A stretch of 64,000 bases of DNA from Nitrososphaeria archaeon (GTDB lineage Archaea > Thermoproteota > Nitrososphaeria > JACIWG01). Positions within the stretch are counted from its first letter, which is position 1. Each line of letters begins with the position of its first letter. Location of the stretch: positions 120,203-184,202 of the forward strand of contig CAVXDT010000014.1 in assembly GCA_963760525.1 (NCBI GenBank). Reading direction: 5' to 3'. The notes under the pieces are model-generated. The model was not told the DNA's origin and did not search any database. It was given only the letters and a program-made list of their open reading frames with translations. Positions 35,993 to 62,706 of the stretch are shown here, piece by piece. The position numbers and the translations under genes were made by a program.

Positions 35993-37621
35993 TTGGTTAA
36001 AGCATCTCAAGGGATTCTAATTCTACTATTCACCTTTGTAATAATAAATTCGGCAGCTGTATCACTCACTGCCAACTGTATGGTAACTTCAATTATTGAC
36101 GAGAATAATGTTGTAATTTCCGAAGTGTTACCTTCGGACTATAGATTAGCTGTGGAACTCTGGCTTGAGGAACGATCTGCTTGGTGTAGCTTATACATGG
36201 AGCATACGTCTTGGTCGAATCAAAGCCAAGCCATCGAAGCTGTTCAGAAAGAGATCAGCAGCAGATTGGCATCTTACAATCTTACATTCAATATTGAGTA
36301 TGTCAAATTTGCCGTAAACGCCTCTATGGATGTTGACTTTACGGTTTCCAACTTACCAGTCAATGGAGGGCCTTTGAACTTTGGTTACAACGACTATTCC
36401 GTTGAATTGGGTTGGTTGGTAGATTGGGCTGAGGCACCTTTTACACAATGGGAAAAGACAATAACGTCGACAGAATACTTCTTGGAGGAAGCGGAGCTAG
36501 AGCATTCAAGGGAAGTGGAAGGTAAGACTTACAGGTTCAATCTTGAGCGTATTATTCGATTACAGGGATTCACCAGCATATCCGAGCTCACGGATACAAG
36601 CGTTTCCTATTCGATCTTCATACCTAAAACCATCCTCAAACTCGACATCTCCCAGGACAAAATCAAGGTAGTCAACATAACCAACTTTTCAAATAAAACC
36701 GAATTTTACAGACTGTACGTTTTGGGCGAGCAGTATCGGGATGAGGTCTTGAAGAATGCTATAGCAGAGGAGGCAACAAGGTTGAACCCGTATAACTTTA
36801 CTGCAGACAACTTTGAAATCTATATGAGCGAGCCATCGGATTTTTACCTGGCCTTGATGGTTCACTACGTTGTACAGGGTGCTGTTGAAAATATTGGTGG
36901 CGATGGGTATAAGGTAGACTTGAGATTCCTTAGCATGCCACTATCGGAGTTCACCATATCGTTAAATCCTCGGACTAAAACAGTTCTGGGATACATGGGA
37001 GATTTGGGTGAAGAGAAAATATTGGTCGCAATACACATGGAATCTATTCAGAAGGTAGAGGATAATATTATATTTGGATTGCCTGTGCAGACTGCTACGA
37101 CCACCGCGACAACTACCGCAACAACAACGACTACTACTGCAACTTCAACGACGACCACACCGACTACAACTATGACAACAGCGACGACAACCACACAGAA
37201 ACCAGGAAACCCTCTAGTCACTGTGATAGCTGAAAATTATATCGCTATTGGGCTCACTTCACTGACTATTTTAGCAGGTGCACTGATCTGGAGAGGCCAC
37301 GTGAGGTCGGTGTGGAACAGGGGCAGCTTCGACTACGATACTTTCAGACTGCTCGTGAGGATGAGGGGTGGAGGAGTGAGGGTGAACCTTCTAAGATCTC
37401 TGGGTGAGCAGAAGAATAAGCTGCAGCTGGCTAAGGAGCTTGATATGGACTGGAAGGCTGTCGACCGTAACATAAGGATATTGTTGAAGTATGGCTTGAT
37501 CATGGAAACAGAGTCCGTGGGCAAGGTAAAATTCTATTCTCTCACACCTGATGGTAAAAAGGTCCTCGAGCTGTTGGAAGAATTGAATAGTGCAGAAGTT
37601 TCAGGGGGGACAGACATATAG
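35993..37621 (+). CDS. Membrane-tethered winged-HTH protein. Signal peptide, large extracytoplasmic domain, Thr-rich linker, one TM helix, cytoplasmic wHTH
   Basis: N-terminal signal/anchor (ILILLFTFVIINSAAVSL). Extracellular domain of about 360 aa. Thr-rich linker TATTTATTTATTTTTTATSTTTTPTTTMTTATTTTQKPG, a likely O-glycosylated stalk. TM helix LVTVIAENYIAIGLTSLTILAGALIW. C-terminal wHTH VNLLRSLGEQKNKLQLAKELDMDWKAVDRNIRILLKYGLI...GKVKFYSLTPDGKKVLELL. Confidence 0.6.
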   Translation: MVKASQGILILLFTFVIINSAAVSLTANCMVTSIIDENNVVISEVLPSDYRLAVELWLEERSAWCSLYMEHTSWSNQSQAIEAVQKEISSRLASYNLTFNIEYVKFAVNASMDVDFTVSNLPVNGGPLNFGYNDYSVELGWLVDWAEAPFTQWEKTITSTEYFLEEAELEHSREVEGKTYRFNLERIIRLQGFTSISELTDTSVSYSIFIPKTILKLDISQDKIKVVNITNFSNKTEFYRLYVLGEQYRDEVLKNAIAEEATRLNPYNFTADNFEIYMSEPSDFYLALMVHYVVQGAVENIGGDGYKVDLRFLSMPLSEFTISLNPRTKTVLGYMGDLGEEKILVAIHMESIQKVEDNIIFGLPVQTATTTATTTATTTTTTATSTTTTPTTTMTTATTTTQKPGNPLVTVIAENYIAIGLTSLTILAGALIWRGHVRSVWNRGSFDYDTFRLLVRMRGGGVRVNLLRSLGEQKNKLQLAKELDMDWKAVDRNIRILLKYGLIMETESVGKVKFYSLTPDGKKVLELLEELNSAEVSGGTDI

Positions 37622-39088
37622 ATGGCCACAAATCACTGGAAATATCTTTCAATAGCACTGGCCATAGTTCTTGTAGCATCTTCTCTCCTGTCAATCCAGA
37701 TAGTTGGCTCATTGGATGAACAACTTGACTCAATGGGAGGGAAATTAAACAGAATTGATAGCGAATACGACGATCTTAAAGCGAAATATGACATGTTGAA
37801 GGATTATTTCGGCTTGGACTATTACACTTCGAACCTCGTATATCTGCAGCTCGGATTTCCCAAGATCACCTCTGGAGGGCTCCCGTATTCCCCGAGCCTT
37901 CCAAACTACACGGTCTACATTAGTGGGAGTAACATACCAAATTTCAAACTTGGGACGATACCCGTGCCCGTAATAAATCTGAAGGACGCCCTCAAGATAG
38001 CGACATCCCCTGCAAACTTGGATCCTACAGAATACTGTCTGATTTCAGCGGACTTTAGCGATGGAACAGTTTTGAATAACACTCTGGAATGGAGTCCAAG
38101 CTGGTCCTTCTACTTTGCAAGGACCTATCAGGACTTTTGGCTCTACGGATTTGGGCTGGACTATAGTTCTGGAGCGATAACTGTCAACGCGTTCAACGGA
38201 AGCATAATGAGAATTTACGGTTTCGGAGAAAATGACATGTATCTGCCAACGTCAGGCGAGAATTTCGAGCTGAAGGTGAACATGACGCAGGCTCTCAAAA
38301 TCGTCAGAAAGAGCAGTTTGAACGGTGTCCCAAGGGAGCTGACAGAGGATGGAAAGATGCAGATGGCGGAGCCAAGAATAGTGCTTTTTGGCCCCGACTC
38401 AAGATACGGATACCTTGAGAGCCCACTTGATCCCTTGCTCTCAGGCAAAAAGAAACTTTGCTGGATCATACAGCTGCATTCACCAGTTCCAGGATACGGT
38501 TATTCTGGTACTTTCGCAGTTGACGCGGAGACTGGAGAGATTGTCGTAGGATATGCTCAAGCAAGTTATCCCTCACTTAATTACCCGTTCTTGAGCGGTG
38601 CCATAGATGGTTCATCAGTATGCAATTTGAAAGTATTGCAGTTGAACTTCTCCATAGATGGAAAGATTATCGGCATGGAAGGAAAACTGCCTCTCATAGT
38701 TCCCAACGTCGTAGTAGTGAGGCCGGGAGCCAGCGGAAGCATTGGCCTGAACATTACGTCTAACCACAGCCAAGATGTAATTGTAAACCTGACCATGGCC
38801 AACCCTCTACCGGGCCTGCAGAGTTTAGGTTCGGACAGCAGTCCTGAAGGAGTGTCAATGCAGTTCATGAGACAGCAGATGGTTGTACAGGCTAACGGAA
38901 CATCGCAGGCTACACTGCTTATTTCAGTACAGAACGATGTTCTGCAGAGGACGTATCTGCTGGAGGTGGACCTTGAATATATGTATCCGCAGTGGAATCA
39001 GCCTTCGAAACAGTCGTTCGTGTTTCTTCTGACCATATGGGATGGAAAAGGGTATATACCCCCATTGCCTATAATAGGTAATGGATGA
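37622..39088 (+). CDS. N-terminally membrane-anchored extracytoplasmic protein (coiled-coil stalk + large beta-rich domain)
   Basis: Start overlaps the previous stop (TAGATG). TM anchor KYLSIALAIVLVASSLLSIQIV, then a coiled-coil, then about 400 aa with many N-x-S/T sequons. Confidence 0.5.
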   Translation: MATNHWKYLSIALAIVLVASSLLSIQIVGSLDEQLDSMGGKLNRIDSEYDDLKAKYDMLKDYFGLDYYTSNLVYLQLGFPKITSGGLPYSPSLPNYTVYISGSNIPNFKLGTIPVPVINLKDALKIATSPANLDPTEYCLISADFSDGTVLNNTLEWSPSWSFYFARTYQDFWLYGFGLDYSSGAITVNAFNGSIMRIYGFGENDMYLPTSGENFELKVNMTQALKIVRKSSLNGVPRELTEDGKMQMAEPRIVLFGPDSRYGYLESPLDPLLSGKKKLCWIIQLHSPVPGYGYSGTFAVDAETGEIVVGYAQASYPSLNYPFLSGAIDGSSVCNLKVLQLNFSIDGKIIGMEGKLPLIVPNVVVVRPGASGSIGLNITSNHSQDVIVNLTMANPLPGLQSLGSDSSPEGVSMQFMRQQMVVQANGTSQATLLISVQNDVLQRTYLLEVDLEYMYPQWNQPSKQSFVFLLTIWDGKGYIPPLPIIGNG

Positions 39089-47334: not shown

Positions 47335-47637
47335 TTGGTTTTGAAGATTTCTCAGATAAGAGATGGCATGCGAAAAGTTGAAGTTGTTGGGCGGGTTACA
47401 GATAAGCCTGAGCCTCGTGAAGTGATACTTAGAACAATGCAGAAAGCCAGAGTAGCCGATCTGACCATAGCAGACGATACTGGCAAAATTAAGCTAACGC
47501 TATGGGATGACCAAATAGACAAAGTTGATCTAGAAGATACAGTAAAAATAGAAAACGGATATGTGAATAGTTACAAAGGAGAAATACGCCTAAACGTTGG
47601 AAGATATGGGACGATGGAAATCATAGAAAAAGAATAA
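47335..47637 (+). CDS. Single OB-fold nucleic-acid-binding protein (SSB/RPA-like)
   Basis: 100 aa. OB-fold pattern VEVVGRVTDKPEPREV...ADDTGKIKLTLWDDQ. Confidence 0.55.
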   Translation: MVLKISQIRDGMRKVEVVGRVTDKPEPREVILRTMQKARVADLTIADDTGKIKLTLWDDQIDKVDLEDTVKIENGYVNSYKGEIRLNVGRYGTMEIIEKE

Positions 47638-47663: not shown

Positions 47664-49733
47664 TTACACATTTATTATAGATGCTGAGCCGCATTTAGGG
47701 CATCTTGACGCAGGTGGACTCTTAGCATTACATGTGCCACAAGAAACAAGGTCCTTTCTGATCTTGAACAAACTGAGTTTAGATAAAGCCTGCTGAATAG
47801 TATCTCCGATTTCATGCGTATCCGTCAGCGATGAGATATCCAGAACCACATGGTATCCGCCCTTTGTCCTATCTATTCTAGCCTGCATTCTCCGAAGCAT
47901 ACCATCGTCATTCAAAGCCTTCATGTTCATGACTGGAATCTGAGAATATCTACCTATACCTGTTAAAACTCTATCCTGAGATGTCTTGGAGAAGATTTCT
48001 TTATCAAGTTCATAGAATCTTTCAGCAGACCCATCAACATAAACTGCTGGGCACATCTTTAATCCTATCTTACTCCCTTCATCCTCTACCATCTTTTGCG
48101 TGAAATCAATGAATTTTATCCACATCTTGTTCTGCTCATCTAGGTCCTGCGGAGCAAGATGTCTAGCAACCTCTTCAAGGCCAACCATATTCAATACTAT
48201 CTCCATACTGTTCTTTGGAAAAAGGTCACTATTATACTCGTAAACATAAAGCAGTTTCTTCTCCATCAAATCTATCAGGATGTTCTTACGTGTTTCCATT
48301 ACACCCGATACTTTCTGAAGGGTGACTTTCAGCAGACTCTTAATATATGACTCTTCAGAACCACTATGAAGTAGACGCGGTAAATTTATGGCTAAGGACT
48401 GCAGGACTATCGTACCTGCCGGCTGAATATCATTTTCGTCAAAATACTTTCTTATCCCATGATAAGATGTCGGCTTATCAATTCGGGATCCGAACATAAC
48501 ATTTCCTCCGTTATTAATCGCTTCCAGAAAAAGATCAAGCTTATCATTGAACTTACCTTTATCAAGAACGTTTACCAGAAGATTTATTCTAGGCTTCAAT
48601 GCTCTCTTAAGATAGAGTACGTACGCTTCCATTACTGCTTCTAAGATATCATCCCTAACACCATCTCCAACATTTATCTGAAAACTCAGAGATTTGGTTG
48701 AACCCGGATCTATATTAGAGACAATATTAACTATCATATTGTAAAATATCTTCTTGCTTATTTCCCTCCATTCTTCCTTTCCTCCTGCCGAGGAAACAAA
48801 CTCCAGAAAGTTTTCGATAACAATCTCATCAGATGCCTCATGAAGCATCTTCCTACCAAGCAAACTAAGCTTAGCAAAAGCGGAATCCAAATCACCGACC
48901 TTGTCAAACCTGATCATAGCAGGATCCTTTACCCCAAACTTGGTTTCAGAGCCAATAATCGATGAAGCATCAAAGAACACACTATCAGGCATAATGCCCC
49001 AGCATCCGGAATTAACAATGCTGATATCACCAGAAAGATGCATATCCAAAGCCTCCGAACCGATCTGCGTCAACAAAAGATAATCTGTAAAAACCGCGTC
49101 AGCCGCAGCAAACCTCAAAGAAACAACATCACCCTCAGAAAGACCCGTCTGGTAAATCTTTTCAGTTACATCCTTCACTGGCAAACCCATCCGAGTAAGC
49201 TTATTCCGATACTCGTCCAAACCTTTCTCTACTAAAACAGAATTAACAAGCTCACGAATCAAGGGCGCAGTCAAATGTACGTTCTCCAACTTACTGATCC
49301 TAGACTCAGCCTCAGCAGTAATCTTTGAGGCTAAATCCCGTGGAACATTAGCCTCCCTAATCAGTGACTGATAAATCCTATTAACATCAAACTCTTCAAT
49401 TTTATGCCTGGATGTCCTCACATATATCTTGCCTGAAGACTGCAAAGCCACATCTCTCAACTCACCCGTAACAGATAAAACCATCCTACCAAGAGGCGAT
49501 AGAGAATATTTTCTAGTATTCTTATTCAAACTCATCAAATTAACAGAACACAATAATCTTAAATGGTAAGCAAAACGACCAGACTCTCTTTTTTTGACAA
49601 AGCCACAATTATTCTTCAATTCAGTATAAGACAACGAACCACTCTTGTTCAACTCCCGTAAAATTGACAAACGCTCATTGGAACCTAAAGCCGAATAAAC
49701 TTTCTCGAAATCTACTGGGTCTTCAGACATCAA
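47664..49733 (-). CDS. wHTH + ATP-cone + NrdD-like (class III ribonucleotide reductase-like) protein with C-terminal Zn ribbon; no glycyl-radical motif seen
   Basis: N-terminal ArsR-like wHTH (LSILRELNKSGSLSYTELKNNCGFVKKRESGRFAYHLRLL). ATP-cone (KIYVRTSRHKIEEFDVNRIYQSLIREANVP...). About 450-aa core. C-terminal CGTCNAKSPPASRCPKCGS, and the protein ends 10 aa later with no RVCGY-type Gly-radical loop. Confidence 0.45.
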   Translation of the reverse strand: MMSEDPVDFEKVYSALGSNERLSILRELNKSGSLSYTELKNNCGFVKKRESGRFAYHLRLLCSVNLMSLNKNTRKYSLSPLGRMVLSVTGELRDVALQSSGKIYVRTSRHKIEEFDVNRIYQSLIREANVPRDLASKITAEAESRISKLENVHLTAPLIRELVNSVLVEKGLDEYRNKLTRMGLPVKDVTEKIYQTGLSEGDVVSLRFAAADAVFTDYLLLTQIGSEALDMHLSGDISIVNSGCWGIMPDSVFFDASSIIGSETKFGVKDPAMIRFDKVGDLDSAFAKLSLLGRKMLHEASDEIVIENFLEFVSSAGGKEEWREISKKIFYNMIVNIVSNIDPGSTKSLSFQINVGDGVRDDILEAVMEAYVLYLKRALKPRINLLVNVLDKGKFNDKLDLFLEAINNGGNVMFGSRIDKPTSYHGIRKYFDENDIQPAGTIVLQSLAINLPRLLHSGSEESYIKSLLKVTLQKVSGVMETRKNILIDLMEKKLLYVYEYNSDLFPKNSMEIVLNMVGLEEVARHLAPQDLDEQNKMWIKFIDFTQKMVEDEGSKIGLKMCPAVYVDGSAERFYELDKEIFSKTSQDRVLTGIGRYSQIPVMNMKALNDDGMLRRMQARIDRTKGGYHVVLDISSLTDTHEIGDTIQQALSKLSLFKIRKDLVSCGTCNAKSPPASRCPKCGSASIINV

Positions 49734-49887
49734 ACCTCACCAATCGACATCCCTGCACTCAACCAATGGCATACAACCAAACAACTAAAAAACTTTAAAC
49801 CAAAATCTCAACTCAAAGACCTAACACCAATGACCACAACAAGTGAACCAAAAAATAAATACACACAAAACACAAGCTCATACCAAC

Positions 49888-49963
49888 GGGGTCGTCAGCT
49901 AGCATGGCTTAGGCTACGTGGCTTGGGCCCACGCAATCGTGAGTTCAAATCTCACCGACCCCA
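49888..49963 (+). tRNA. tRNA-Pro (anticodon TGG)
   Basis: Acceptor GGGGTCG/CGACCCC; anticodon stem CGTGG/CCACG with loop CTTGGGC; T-arm GTGAG-TTCAAAT-CTCAC; 76 nt without CCA. Confidence 0.8.
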
Positions 49964-50155
49964 TCTTCATTGATACTTTTAGACGAACATCATATTAATC
50001 GGTATTATTGTTGAACCTAGCGAAAGCTCGTTCTGGTACCTGTTCTCTATTCGCAAAACGTATTCGCTGATTTCACGTTAAGATTTTTGAGCTATTAAGA
50101 GGTGAAAATTGGCTCTTATATCATTCAAACATGTGGGACATTTGTTATACACTTG

Positions 50156-52010: not shown

Positions 52011-53109
52011 CTACTGAATCATTTCCCATTTTGCCTGATATTTGTTTAGTTCTGTTATCGTGTACTTATCCAGTGGATGCTCTCGAACAGGTACCTCAAG
52101 GTCTTTTTCTTCTCCACAGAGTCCTGTTGAGAAATATCGTTGGCCTGAATCGTTTATCATTGTCACAATCGATTTGAATTCTTGGTGCTTATTGGAGATT
52201 TTGATTGCTGCAGCTACATTGCAGCCTGACGATATCCCACAAAATATTCCCTCTTCCAAGGCAAGTCTTTTTGCCATCTCTATTGCCTCTTCGGAGGTGG
52301 TTGTGATGATTCCAGTGATGAGGCTTAGATCCGTGTTCTTTGGAACAAAACCATCACCAATACCTTCGATTCGGTGGGAACCCCACGTTCTTTTCGACAA
52401 GAGGGGGCCTTCAGTTGGTTCAACTGCATAAATACGGATGTCAGTTTTCTTTTCTTTAAGGAATTTGCCAACGCCTGTTAAAGTTCCCCCTGTACCTGTA
52501 GATGCTAAGAAGCAATCTATGTCTCCATTTGTCTGTTCCCAAATTTCCCTGGCAGTGGTCCCATAGTGTATGTCTGGATTGATGCGATTTGAAAACTGAT
52601 CTGGCCACCAGTATCTACCAGGATCTGCTTCTATTATCTTCTTTATTTTTTCCATACCCAAATCCACATCGCTTTCTCCACCTTCTGTGAATATCACATT
52701 GCCCCCGTATGAGCAGGATCATTTTTACCCTTTCTTGACTCATCCCCTTTGGCATGACAATTATGACCTTGTAACCAAGTAGGTGCCCGATGAAAGAACA
52801 TGAAATCCCTGCATTTCCTGTTGAGGCCTCTATGATTTCCATACCTGGTCTTAGTTCGCCAGATTCAATTGCCTTCTTCAGCATTCCATAGTAGATCCTG
52901 TCCTTCAAGCTGCCTGTAGGATTATAAAATTCCAATTTTCCAAATATATCCGCTGACACGCCGTTCTTCTTGGATATTCTCTCCAATTTTACAAGGGGCG
53001 TTCTGCCTATTAATTCGAGAATGCTTTCAGAAGCCTTCTTATTAACGTCCCATTCGATCTTATCTGAATCTGATCTTCCCATGCCCTTCCACTTTCTGGT
53101 GAAAGGCAT
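52011..53109 (-). CDS. cysK: Cysteine synthase/PLP-dependent CysK-CysM-like enzyme; frame broken by a 1-nt indel in a C5 run (52702..52706)
   Basis: N-terminal part 52615..53109 (PLP-lysine region NPTGSLKDRI, ASTGNAGIS). C-terminal part 52011..52697 (GTGGTLTGVGKFLKE...IEGIGDGFVP...ISSGCNVAAA). With one G fewer in the mRNA GGGGG run, the joined sequence reads ...ERVKMILLIRGNVIFTEGGE..., matching CysK spacing exactly. Confidence 0.75.
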
Positions 53110-60984: not shown

Positions 60985-62706
60985 TTGAGCCTTGCCCTTA
61001 GAGGCGACCAGATATCGCCTGAGCCCAGACTTCTCCCCACACCATCACCCACTGAACCCCGTCCCATTCTCACGCTATCTGAGCTGGTTTCTGGCAGATA
61101 TGTCGATACGGTCGCTAGGATAGCGTCTGTAAGAGTTTCCGAAAGGGTTGATCAGATGGGGTGCAAGTTTGTTTCCACAGGTGTACTTGAGGATAGGACC
61201 TTCAAGCTGCCCTTCCTATGTCATAAGGTTTCCCTTCCTCTGACTTTGAACTCCATTTTCAAGCTTAAGTCGGTTTACGTTCACGAGTTCAAGGACAAGT
61301 CATTGATTGTTATTCTCACGGAATACAGCAGAGCTGAACCGAGAGAAGTTGAAGATTTCAAGGATTTTCTCTGGGTCCCGAAGATAGGAGCCATCAGGAG
61401 ACCTGTTTTAGATATCACACTAACTGGGATAATAGCGGCCATCTACAGTTCGTCTGGGCTCGTAAAGAGATGTAACCGTTGCAAGAAGCTTGTAGTCGAC
61501 ACTTGTCCAGAAGGCTGTGCTGAAGGCTGGAGTTGGGACTTGCGAATCTCATCTAAACTGTACGATGGAACGGGGTCGATCAGAACTATATTCACTAGAC
61601 ATCTTACAGCAAAGGTGCTTCAGAGAAGCCTTGGAGAAATCCTCTACTTGGCCAACACACCGAAGGCTCGAACTGAAAATTGCTTCGAAACGATGTCCTT
61701 TAAGCTAAGACTGCCTCATGACATTGATATTGTCGAGGGCGTAGTCGAAGACGCTTTATCGTTCAGGCGAACCGACAAGTTGCTCGTGCCAGACGGGTTC
61801 ACGCTACTATATTTTCCAAAGGGGTTGAAGATGCCATCATTACCGTTTAATGGAACTTCCGAGAAGAGGCTTGACGCATGCAATCCTGATGACTCGAGAA
61901 TTCTTCGAAAGTTTGTGGAGAAAGCTTTGGACATCAAGATACGAGAAATCACAGGAATGTCTAAAGTTCATGACATGTACCTGCTGGAAGAGCCTAGCCA
62001 AATCTATTCCTGCGAGCTTGCAAAGCTTTACGTCGGATTCTCAGTGAAGACTGCGATAGGCCAAGATATTGCCGACGTGGAATCGACCCCTGAAGCCTTT
62101 CTACGGGAGAACGTCTGGAACTATGTGAAATGGAGGAGGACTAGAGGGGCGTCAGCCAACTCCATAAAACATGCGCTTCTAACACAAAGGTCGAACGTCG
62201 TCCTAGCTCCATCAAACCGATACGGGCACATTGAAGAACTGATCTTCAAGAGGGCAGGAGACCAGAAGGTGTCTGAACACGATTCAAGAAGTTTGGTGGA
62301 GTTCTGGAAGGAAGTTTATGATATAGACATCTCGCCTGATGAAATGCCATTGCTCAGGGTTAAGCCAGCTGACTCGGAAACGCTTTTCACGTATCCGCCG
62401 AGCACGCTTTTCTACGATGGTAACGTTTTGTTCGTTTCAGGTAGGGCGCAGAACTTTATTGCCAGTAGAAAGGCTACTCTGACCCCTCGAGTTCACGCTG
62501 TAATGGATAAGGCGCTGAGAGCGTTAAATATCGGAGGGAAAGCCCTTGAGCTTCAAGAAGATGGTACTGGAAGAGCTGACATCCAAAGGGTCCTGTTGCA
62601 GGAAACCCATCAGAAGCTTTTTGGGAAGACCGTTAAAGCCAGAGGCTCAATAATCCAGCTCGGAAACCAACTTTACTTCTTCCCAAATAATGTCGTGGTG
62701 AGTTAA
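60985..62706 (+). CDS. RPA-like OB-fold/zinc-ribbon protein fused to a ~340-aa domain of unknown function
   Basis: The first ~230 aa contain OB-fold segments and a C4 ribbon (CNRCKKLVVDTCPEGC), as in archaeal RPA. The remainder has no recognisable motif. Confidence 0.4.
   Translation: MSLALRGDQISPEPRLLPTPSPTEPRPILTLSELVSGRYVDTVARIASVRVSERVDQMGCKFVSTGVLEDRTFKLPFLCHKVSLPLTLNSIFKLKSVYVHEFKDKSLIVILTEYSRAEPREVEDFKDFLWVPKIGAIRRPVLDITLTGIIAAIYSSSGLVKRCNRCKKLVVDTCPEGCAEGWSWDLRISSKLYDGTGSIRTIFTRHLTAKVLQRSLGEILYLANTPKARTENCFETMSFKLRLPHDIDIVEGVVEDALSFRRTDKLLVPDGFTLLYFPKGLKMPSLPFNGTSEKRLDACNPDDSRILRKFVEKALDIKIREITGMSKVHDMYLLEEPSQIYSCELAKLYVGFSVKTAIGQDIADVESTPEAFLRENVWNYVKWRRTRGASANSIKHALLTQRSNVVLAPSNRYGHIEELIFKRAGDQKVSEHDSRSLVEFWKEVYDIDISPDEMPLLRVKPADSETLFTYPPSTLFYDGNVLFVSGRAQNFIASRKATLTPRVHAVMDKALRALNIGGKALELQEDGTGRADIQRVLLQETHQKLFGKTVKARGSIIQLGNQLYFFPNNVVVS

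Follow-up and report, generated by a model that had tools for sequence, protein, structure and literature searches.

We examined a gene in a 64,000-nucleotide stretch of the genome of a Nitrososphaeria archaeon (contig CAVXDT010000014.1; "the window" below means this whole stretch) and found that it encodes a protein of 689 aa with the domain order and predicted fold of NrdD, the catalytic subunit of the anaerobic class III ribonucleotide reductase (RNR), preceded by a winged helix-turn-helix (wHTH) and stripped of the catalytic residues of that enzyme. With a probability of roughly 60%, judged from sequence comparison and structure prediction, we propose that it is an NrdD-derived pseudoenzyme that serves as a nucleotide-sensing winged-helix transcription factor for the supply of deoxynucleoside triphosphates (dNTPs). 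An initial annotation had offered three possibilities for this gene, namely a radical-independent NrdD-like enzyme, an NrdD-derived allosteric transcription regulator with the logic of NrdR, and a mis-assigned large family. The regulator is favoured by the loss of catalytic residues, by the conservation of the wHTH and ATP-cone and by linkage to the class II RNR gene nrdJ in related clades, and the family is indeed large, with anaerobic RNR as a frequent annotation of its members; it is very unlikely that the protein is a radical-independent enzyme, as the thiyl-radical Cys and the second catalytic Cys have gone along with the Gly loop. The gene and its parts, all on the minus strand, lie at the following positions of the window.

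47664..49733, minus strand: whole gene, 689 aa, with wHTH, ATP-cone, an NrdD-like core that is very probably catalytically dead, and Zn ribbon
49476..49703, minus strand: ArsR/DUF7347-type wHTH, the presumed DNA-binding module, residues 11-86
49188..49427, minus strand: ATP-cone, residues 103-182
47769..49178, minus strand: NrdD-like helical region and alpha/beta barrel, poorly conserved, residues 186-655
48966..48998, minus strand: strand matching F-N-C175-M-L-I-D of Escherichia coli NrdD in hhalign and reading P-D-S251-V-F-F-D here
48396..48482, minus strand: finger-loop equivalent, residues 418-446 (IDKPTSYHGIRKYFDENDIQPAGTIVLQS), with zero Cys
48375..48386, minus strand: NLPR motif of canonical NrdD, N450-L-P-R453, equivalent to E. 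coli residues 412-415 and invariant in the family
47691..47741, minus strand: NrdD-type Zn ribbon, CxxC-x9-CxxC (C665, C668, C678, C681)
47667..47690, minus strand: C-terminal tail GSASIINV, followed by a TAA stop, where canonical NrdD has its glycyl-radical loop

Two start codons are available, a TTG at 49733 and an ATG right behind it at 49730. Homologues open with MSDD... or MYGD..., and because of the MSDD... openings the ATG is probably the true start, in which case the protein would have 688 aa and begin with MSEDP.

Pfam recognizes three domains in the protein: a DUF7347 wHTH at residues 11-86 (39.5 bits, gathering threshold 27.6, E = 7e-10), an ATP-cone at residues 103-175 (31.0 bits, threshold 25.8, E = 4e-7) and NRDD (PF13597) at residues 402-685 (42.7 bits, threshold 26.2, E = 4e-11). 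The NRDD match spans profile positions 228-531 of 562 and thus falls short of the C-terminal end of the profile. An AlphaFold2 model (mean pLDDT 81.7) is divided into three modules by low-confidence linkers at residues 93-99 and 183-188. The N-terminal module has the winged-helix fold of ArsR/SmtB regulators, to judge from the DUF7347 score, the profile matches and the modelled helices (residues 19-31, 36-42 and 48-63, with a hairpin at 67-78). A profile of the protein family matched the ArsR/SmtB-family structures NmtR, ArsR and HlyU in the PDB weakly, and HTH_5 and HTH_20 matches are present in homologues; the NCBIfam model HTH_metalloreg scored 18.5 bits, below its cut-off of 55.

The protein shares both ancestry and fold with NrdD. 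No NrdD was found when the single sequence was searched against the PDB with phmmer; the NrdD matches came with the family profile, built from 15 sequences, which retrieved the solved NrdDs of S. thermophilus (9D3X, E = 2e-32), T. maritima (4COI, 7e-29), P. copri (8P23, 1e-27) and phage T4 (1H78, 3e-23). Alignment of the family with E. coli NrdD in hhalign gave a probability of 99.9%, with residues 107-689 of the window protein corresponding to E. coli residues 1-673, the cone pairing with the E. coli ATP-cone and the ribbon with the E. coli ribbon (C665/C668/C678/C681 with C644/C647/C662/C665). When the AlphaFold2 model was submitted to Foldseek, the best 34 matches were all class III RNRs, with E-values down to 1e-18 and TM-scores up to 0.68 (T4 NrdD), and matches to class I and II RNRs had TM-scores of ~0.3. 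The architecture described in the initial annotation, a wHTH followed by an ATP-cone, an NrdD core and a C-terminal ribbon, is thus borne out by Pfam, hhalign and AlphaFold2/Foldseek, and profile search, hhalign and structure prediction agree that the central region is NrdD-like. The homologous parts (ATP-cone, helical region, alpha/beta barrel and four-Cys Zn ribbon) stand in the same order as in class III NrdD (PF13597/TIGR02487), and the NLPR motif is common to both. The window family differs from class III NrdD by its added N-terminal wHTH and by its occurrence in obligate aerobes, and the window protein differs by having no glycyl-radical loop, thiyl-radical Cys, second catalytic Cys or NrdG partner.

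The absence of the glycyl-radical motif had already been noticed from the sequence, and the alignment agrees: the C-terminus stops at the equivalent of E. coli residue 673, five aligned positions before R678-V-C-G681-Y, and there is no RVxGY. That the protein ends soon after the ribbon is also correct; the tail after the last ribbon Cys consists of 8 residues, not the 10 first counted. The losses extend beyond the glycyl loop. In hhalign, the thiyl-radical Cys of E. coli NrdD (C384; C290 in T4) corresponds to Y424 (to I in a MAFFT alignment), M382 to T422 and the second catalytic Cys (C175; C79 in T4) to S251. The eight Cys of the protein are at positions 43, 62, 244, 561, 665, 668, 678 and 681, with zero between 245 and 560. 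We ruled out C244 as a displaced catalytic Cys; it aligns with E. coli Y166, in a column that varies among V, Y, C, S, A, F and N in the family. The NCBIfam equivalog for NrdD (TIGR02487) gave 29.1 bits against a cut-off of 326.35.

Two circumstances that could have undone this picture, a glycyl-radical domain encoded in a separate downstream open reading frame (ORF) and a C-terminus lost to an assembly error, were both ruled out. A six-frame regular-expression search of the 64 kb returned only fragments of 14-34 codons in non-coding frames, and the gap between the stop codon and the convergent neighbouring gene is 26 bp; a tail of 5-14 residues is also found in 145 homologues. The claim that no nrdG is nearby held as well. 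Within the window, no NrdG was found by tblastn with E. coli NrdG, the best match (E = 0.16) being MoaA, the sole radical-SAM gene of the window, and no canonical NrdD was found elsewhere in it by tblastn with E. coli NrdD. The E. coli NrdG search over 89 fetched loci of the family returned nothing better than E = 0.003.

We scored the catalytic columns in 60 long and 8 short family members aligned to E. coli NrdD. No member has Cys in the C175 column (0/68), Cys is present in the C384 column in six of the 60 long forms and none of the eight short forms, and Gly occupies the radical position in ~17 of the 60 long forms, with a one-column register shift allowed, and again in none of the short forms. 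The full catalytic set of both Cys and the Gly is found in 0/68, and the ribbon Cys and the Asn of NLPR are invariant in 68/68. It is very probable that the protein is non-catalytic.

The family is widespread. A word-indexed search returned 62 relatives, all from archaeal metagenome-assembled genomes (Nitrososphaeria, Conexivisphaerales, Bathyarchaeia, Baldrarchaeia and Caldarchaeum), and an exhaustive search of representatives of 50%-identity clusters gave 774 matches at E<=1e-3 and 132 at E<=1e-30, many of the 774 matching over the N-terminal ~250 aa alone. In a scan of species-representative genomes, a relative was encoded by at least 589 species, from Nitrososphaeria, including aerobic ammonia oxidisers, and from Bathyarchaeia; the genera of ammonia-oxidising archaea (AOA) matched include Nitrosopumilus, Nitrosarchaeum, Nitrosotenuis, Nitrosopelagicus and Nitrososphaera. 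Database names for these proteins vary among "anaerobic ribonucleoside-triphosphate reductase", "ArsR family transcriptional regulator", "HxlR family regulator" and "ATP cone domain-containing protein".

Conservation across the family is strongly graded along the protein. As the relatives compared become more distant, identity to the window protein falls from 94 to 57% in the ATP-cone, the most conserved part, from 84 to 30-45% in the wHTH and from 89 to ~35% in the helical linker (residues 179-260), compared with 45 to 10-15% in the N-terminal half of the barrel and 66 to ~15% in its C-terminal half, distant members having 10-17% over the barrel. The cone is still 57-63% identical where overall identity is ~27%, and besides the ribbon Cys about 40 further positions are invariant in the family. 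In two Caldarchaeum proteins (P0055 and P0056) the wHTH and ATP-cone are kept and NRDD is undetectable. The wHTH and ATP-cone are therefore under far stronger constraint than the barrel, which in the window family is the least conserved region and in class III NrdD the most conserved. Read from these alignments, this is the gradient of a regulator; a working RNR would be expected to give the opposite one.

Long forms of the family from Bathyarchaeia and Baldrarchaeia (for example P0045, P0099 and P0120) have the same domain order and ~27% identity to the window protein. These Bathyarchaeia-type proteins (730-800 aa) score 153-317 bits on Pfam NRDD, with matches that reach profile positions 538-560 of 562, and in their tails the radical loop survives in part, as R-x-x-[G/A/S]-x-[Y/F/L]-x-P. 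A few have the finger-loop Cys and none an equivalent of C175, and no nrdJ neighbour was present at the loci examined. Which of the catalytic residues have gone differs by lineage, a pattern in the alignments that resembles decay following a functional change.

Two of the Bathyarchaeia-type long forms, P0120 and P0200, retain both the finger-loop Cys (GCR) and the Gly of the C-terminal loop, and have Glu at the C175 position. Going by these residues, they could be intermediates, or could conceivably be active through a different reductant chemistry. A further truncated lineage of NrdD-like proteins, P0061 and P0062, matches the ATP-cone profile in two stretches and NRDD over positions 5-479 of 562; wHTH, Zn ribbon and glycyl-radical end are all absent, and this domain content suggests that the lineage may be a second, independent non-catalytic derivative of NrdD.

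The genomic neighbourhood connects the family to RNR. By tblastn, 78 of the 89 loci have an RNR gene as the immediate neighbour of the family gene, downstream in tandem in 76 and convergent in two. Of the 11 loci with no RNR neighbour, three are on contigs that break off within 400 bp, three are from Bathyarchaeia and five are from the clade to which the window protein belongs (the window clade). The neighbours are adenosylcobalamin-dependent class II enzymes, NrdJ, with TIGR02504 scores of 717 and 737 bits against a cut-off of 400. On a 2.2-Mb contig (L002), for example, a protein of 883 aa with ATP-cone, Ribonuc_red_lgN and Ribonuc_red_lgC is encoded 386 bp downstream on the same strand, and in two further lineages, one of them Conexivisphaerales, the RNR gene is convergent with the family gene and abuts it. 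Orthologues adjacent to nrdJ occur in Nitrososphaerales, Nitrosopumilales-type and Conexivisphaerales genomes, and the linkage is present at every evaluable locus of Nitrososphaerales or Conexivisphaerales type. The gaps between the two genes are mostly ~170-230 bp and hold a TATA-like box, so that regulator and nrdJ appear to be separate transcription units. The family is thus paired with a class II RNR, and its hosts, many of which are obligate aerobes, would gain little from a glycyl-radical enzyme sensitive to oxygen.

On the 2.2-Mb contig, the regulator-nrdJ pair is also bracketed by two copies of an IS605 OrfB/Cas12f-like TnpB gene with the same small flanking ORFs (L002:15325-16465 and L002:5453-6377).

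The closest functional parallel is NrdR, which consists of an N-terminal Zn ribbon and an ATP-cone and is rare in archaea (PMC9110341), so that the role of RNR regulator is left open there. Both NrdR and the window family join a DNA-binding module to an ATP-cone and are associated with RNR genes, and the logic that we propose they share is nucleotide-dependent control of RNR transcription. Homology is confined to the ATP-cone. The DNA-binding domain of the window family is a wHTH and not a Zn ribbon, none being present at its N-terminus; its ribbon is C-terminal and of NrdD origin; it bears a domain of ~500 aa derived from NrdD that NrdR does not have; its cone has no canonical K-R; and sites resembling the paired boxes that NrdR binds ahead of RNR operons were not identified for it. 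ArsR/SmtB- and HxlR-type regulators (PF01022, PF12840, DUF7347) match its N-terminal ~80 aa, but the sensor part of the window family is an ATP-cone with an RNR-derived domain and not a metal site. As we read it, the protein works like NrdR yet stands outside the NrdR family, and is homologous to NrdD yet fails its defining catalytic features.

We suggest the following scenario. The alpha subunit of a class III RNR, with ATP-cone, barrel and Zn ribbon, would have gained an N-terminal ArsR-like wHTH and then lost its radical chemistry, selection on the chemistry being released once the wHTH-bearing protein had taken another role. In the present-day protein, the wHTH would bind DNA, the NrdD-like core joining the subunits into a dimer or oligomer, and the ATP-cone, possibly with relic effector sites in the NrdD helical region, would sense ATP/dATP or other (d)NTPs. 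A nucleotide-dependent shift in oligomer state or domain arrangement could then toggle transcription of nrdJ and probably of the regulator's own gene. Dimerisation through the core, nucleotide binding and nucleotide-dependent control of DNA binding are inferred here by analogy with NrdR (PMC9110341) and with P. copri NrdD. The latter, an NrdD with an ATP-cone that is listed among the structural matches in dATP/ATP-dependent tetramer and dimer states, offers an analogy for the proposed switching.

A candidate operator could be discerned in ammonia oxidisers. In an alignment of the spacers between regulator and nrdJ from 19 Nitrosopumilaceae loci (e.g., L049:12017-12232; also L050, L058, L063, L066 and L069), three invariant GATC sites, spaced by 21 and ~19-20 bp, lie directly behind the stop codon of the regulator and are followed by a conserved palindrome, TATGAAnTTCATA (given also as TATGAAnTTCATAGTA), and by a TATA-like box, TTTATACC, ~40 nt ahead of the nrdJ start. 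Within the conserved 80-nt block of the spacer, the GATC columns are 96.5% identical and the remainder 80%. GATC occurs 15.7 times per kb upstream of the regulator and 10.2 times per kb upstream of nrdJ, compared with 3.0 in other intergenic DNA of the same loci and 4.2 in coding sequence, and the two upstream regions exceed the rest of the same loci 22-fold in the density of clusters of at least three GATC in 60 bp. The GATC triplet and palindrome together make a possible operator, or possibly a methylation-related element; we regard this spacer pattern as a lead and not as proof. As an operator of the whole family the GATC motif fails, since deeper lineages (L002, L016, L018, L022 and L041) have 0-1 sites, and the lead is specific to this clade.

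In four Nitrosarchaeum loci (L068, L075, L079 and L087), the whole spacer module of GATC boxes and promoter-like block seems to have been duplicated, and a few hundred inserted bp separate the copies.

The surroundings of the gene in the window are of a different kind, with the following flanking features.

49734..49887, minus strand: upstream (promoter) region of ~155 bp, G+T-rich on the coding strand
49888..49963, plus strand: divergent tRNA-Pro(TGG), at the same position in all five window-clade relatives (L009-L013)
47335..47637, plus strand: convergent gene for a 100-aa OB-fold protein resembling single-stranded DNA-binding proteins (SSB/RPA-like), a conserved neighbour in the window clade

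The apparent intergenic gap of 423 bp is explained by the tRNA-Pro gene, which fills most of it. Gene order in the window clade is tRNA-Pro(TGG), the family gene and the convergent SSB-like gene, then EndA, a UbiA prenyltransferase and the large subunit of replication factor C (RFC-L). No nrdJ was found within 10 kb on either side in the five relatives, and in the alignment of the upstream regions of all six loci the conserved elements are the tRNA-Pro and a T-rich promoter-like block alone, and neither a dyad nor a GATC site appears.

Several observations weigh against a dNTP-supply regulator. The window gene and its five closest relatives, whose proteins are 56-70% identical, do not lie beside nrdJ; no nrdJ was found in the 64 kb by Pfam on the ten largest ORFs or by tblastn with an AOA-type NrdJ; and the alignment of the upstream regions revealed no recognisable dyad, operator or GATC in that of the window. 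The Bathyarchaeia members likewise have no RNR neighbour, and at the two convergent loci the arrangement amounts to linkage and not to co-regulation. The AOA loci are phylogenetically related, so that the GATC statistics are not independent, and the GATC sites could serve another factor or a methylation system. The cone itself is unusual. The K-R dipeptide of ATP-cones contacts nucleotide phosphates. The family signature is V105-R-T-S-R, compared with V-M-K-R-D-G in E. coli NrdD and I-Q-K-R-S-G in the adjacent NrdJ; residues V105, R106, S108, E113, F115 and I120 are invariant. The canonical K-R is thus replaced by T-S, though basic residues flank it, and binding of ATP/dATP is not assured.

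The RNR target of the window protein is deduced from orthology, and a different or broader regulon, of replication genes for instance, is also possible on the same sequence evidence. Taking the family as a whole, we see about even odds that an entire class III catalytic subunit was exapted as the ligand-sensing body of a factor governing a class II RNR across Nitrososphaeria, AOA included, with a non-canonical ATP-cone and perhaps relic effector sites, as an independent archaeal counterpart of NrdR function.

A partner acting at the protein level, such as an allosteric chaperone, a scaffold or a nucleotide buffer for the class II RNR or the replication machinery, would use its wHTH for protein contacts or for non-specific tethering to DNA. 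This is unlikely, even if the strict adjacency to nrdJ agrees equally with a physical partnership and with regulation, the arrangement is convergent in two clades, and the window-clade genes have two replication proteins (SSB and RFC-L) as neighbours and no operator that we could find. The wHTH is a DNA-binding fold of ArsR/HxlR type and among the best conserved parts of the protein; the conserved non-coding GATC sites and palindrome flank the gene in AOA; and the low Foldseek scores of class I and II enzymes (TM ~0.3) indicate that the cores of NrdJ and NrdD differ too much for a heterodimer to be an obvious option.

It is likewise doubtful, though conceivable, that the window protein is a nucleotide-sensing transcription factor with a regulon other than RNR, for example a replication and repair or growth-state programme, nrdJ being the linked gene in other clades only. 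The lack of nrdJ in the window and around the five relatives speaks for such a regulon, and so does the conserved synteny with SSB, EndA, UbiA and RFC-L. Moreover, the wHTH is only 43-47% identical to that of the nrdJ-linked clades, which implies that the operators probably differ. Yet the protein shares architecture, length and signature motifs with the nrdJ-linked orthologues, and regulators need not adjoin their targets.

We consider it highly improbable that the protein is still a ribonucleotide reductase, using an unconventional radical source, a glycyl-radical subunit supplied in trans or a radical-independent mechanism. It has kept the fold of NrdD along with the NLPR motif and Zn ribbon, and databases call it an anaerobic RNR. 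But other residues stand in place of C384, C175 and M382 and nothing corresponds to G681, which from the sequence brings this reading close to refuted; the barrel is the least conserved region and the equivalog score is 29 bits against a cut-off of 326; neither NrdG nor a separate glycyl-radical ORF is present in the window; and the family is found throughout the aerobic ammonia oxidisers, where nrdJ already lies next door. A decaying, functionless nrdD relic, for which the lost catalytic residues and the fast divergence of the barrel might speak, is less credible again, given a full-length ORF intact in at least 589 species with length and synteny conserved, and invariant ribbon Cys, ~40 further invariant positions and a cone 57-63% identical at ~27% overall identity, all strong evidence of purifying selection.

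If the regulator reading is right, the factor would govern a B12-dependent class II RNR, and so dNTP supply, in globally abundant AOA as well. Control of RNR expression is poorly understood in most archaea, NrdR being rare, and the family provides a concrete candidate, including in those ammonia oxidisers on which nitrification in sea and soil mainly depends. It would also be a clear case of exaptation from enzyme to regulator with intermediates visible, the Bathyarchaeia forms keeping radical-loop remnants or the thiyl-radical Cys and the Nitrososphaeria forms being fully stripped. In practical terms, the label "anaerobic ribonucleoside-triphosphate reductase" would wrongly credit aerobic archaea with a class III RNR in metabolic reconstructions and surveys of RNR classes. 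In the literature covered, which left out most subscription journals, we found no description of this architecture, of DUF7347 or of an NrdD-like archaeal regulator, and prior mention is possible.

Some minor features of the window were also recorded. Three large ORFs on the plus strand, adjacent or near one another, at 35993-37621 (542 aa), 37622-39088 (488 aa) and 60985-62706 (573 aa), had no Pfam match at E<=1e-5. GC skew on the plus strand is -0.31 over 48001-50000, a stretch that takes in the family gene and its G+T-rich upstream region, and is far stronger there than in the neighbouring 2-kb bins. On the minus strand, the overlapping ORFs 52011-52697 and 52615-53109 appear by eye to be the C- and N-terminal parts of one pyridoxal phosphate-dependent enzyme of the cysteine synthase/CBS type (GKLEFYNPTGSLKDR...; ...GTGGTLTGVGKFLKE...), and a frameshift, a pseudogene or a sequencing error may lie behind the pair.

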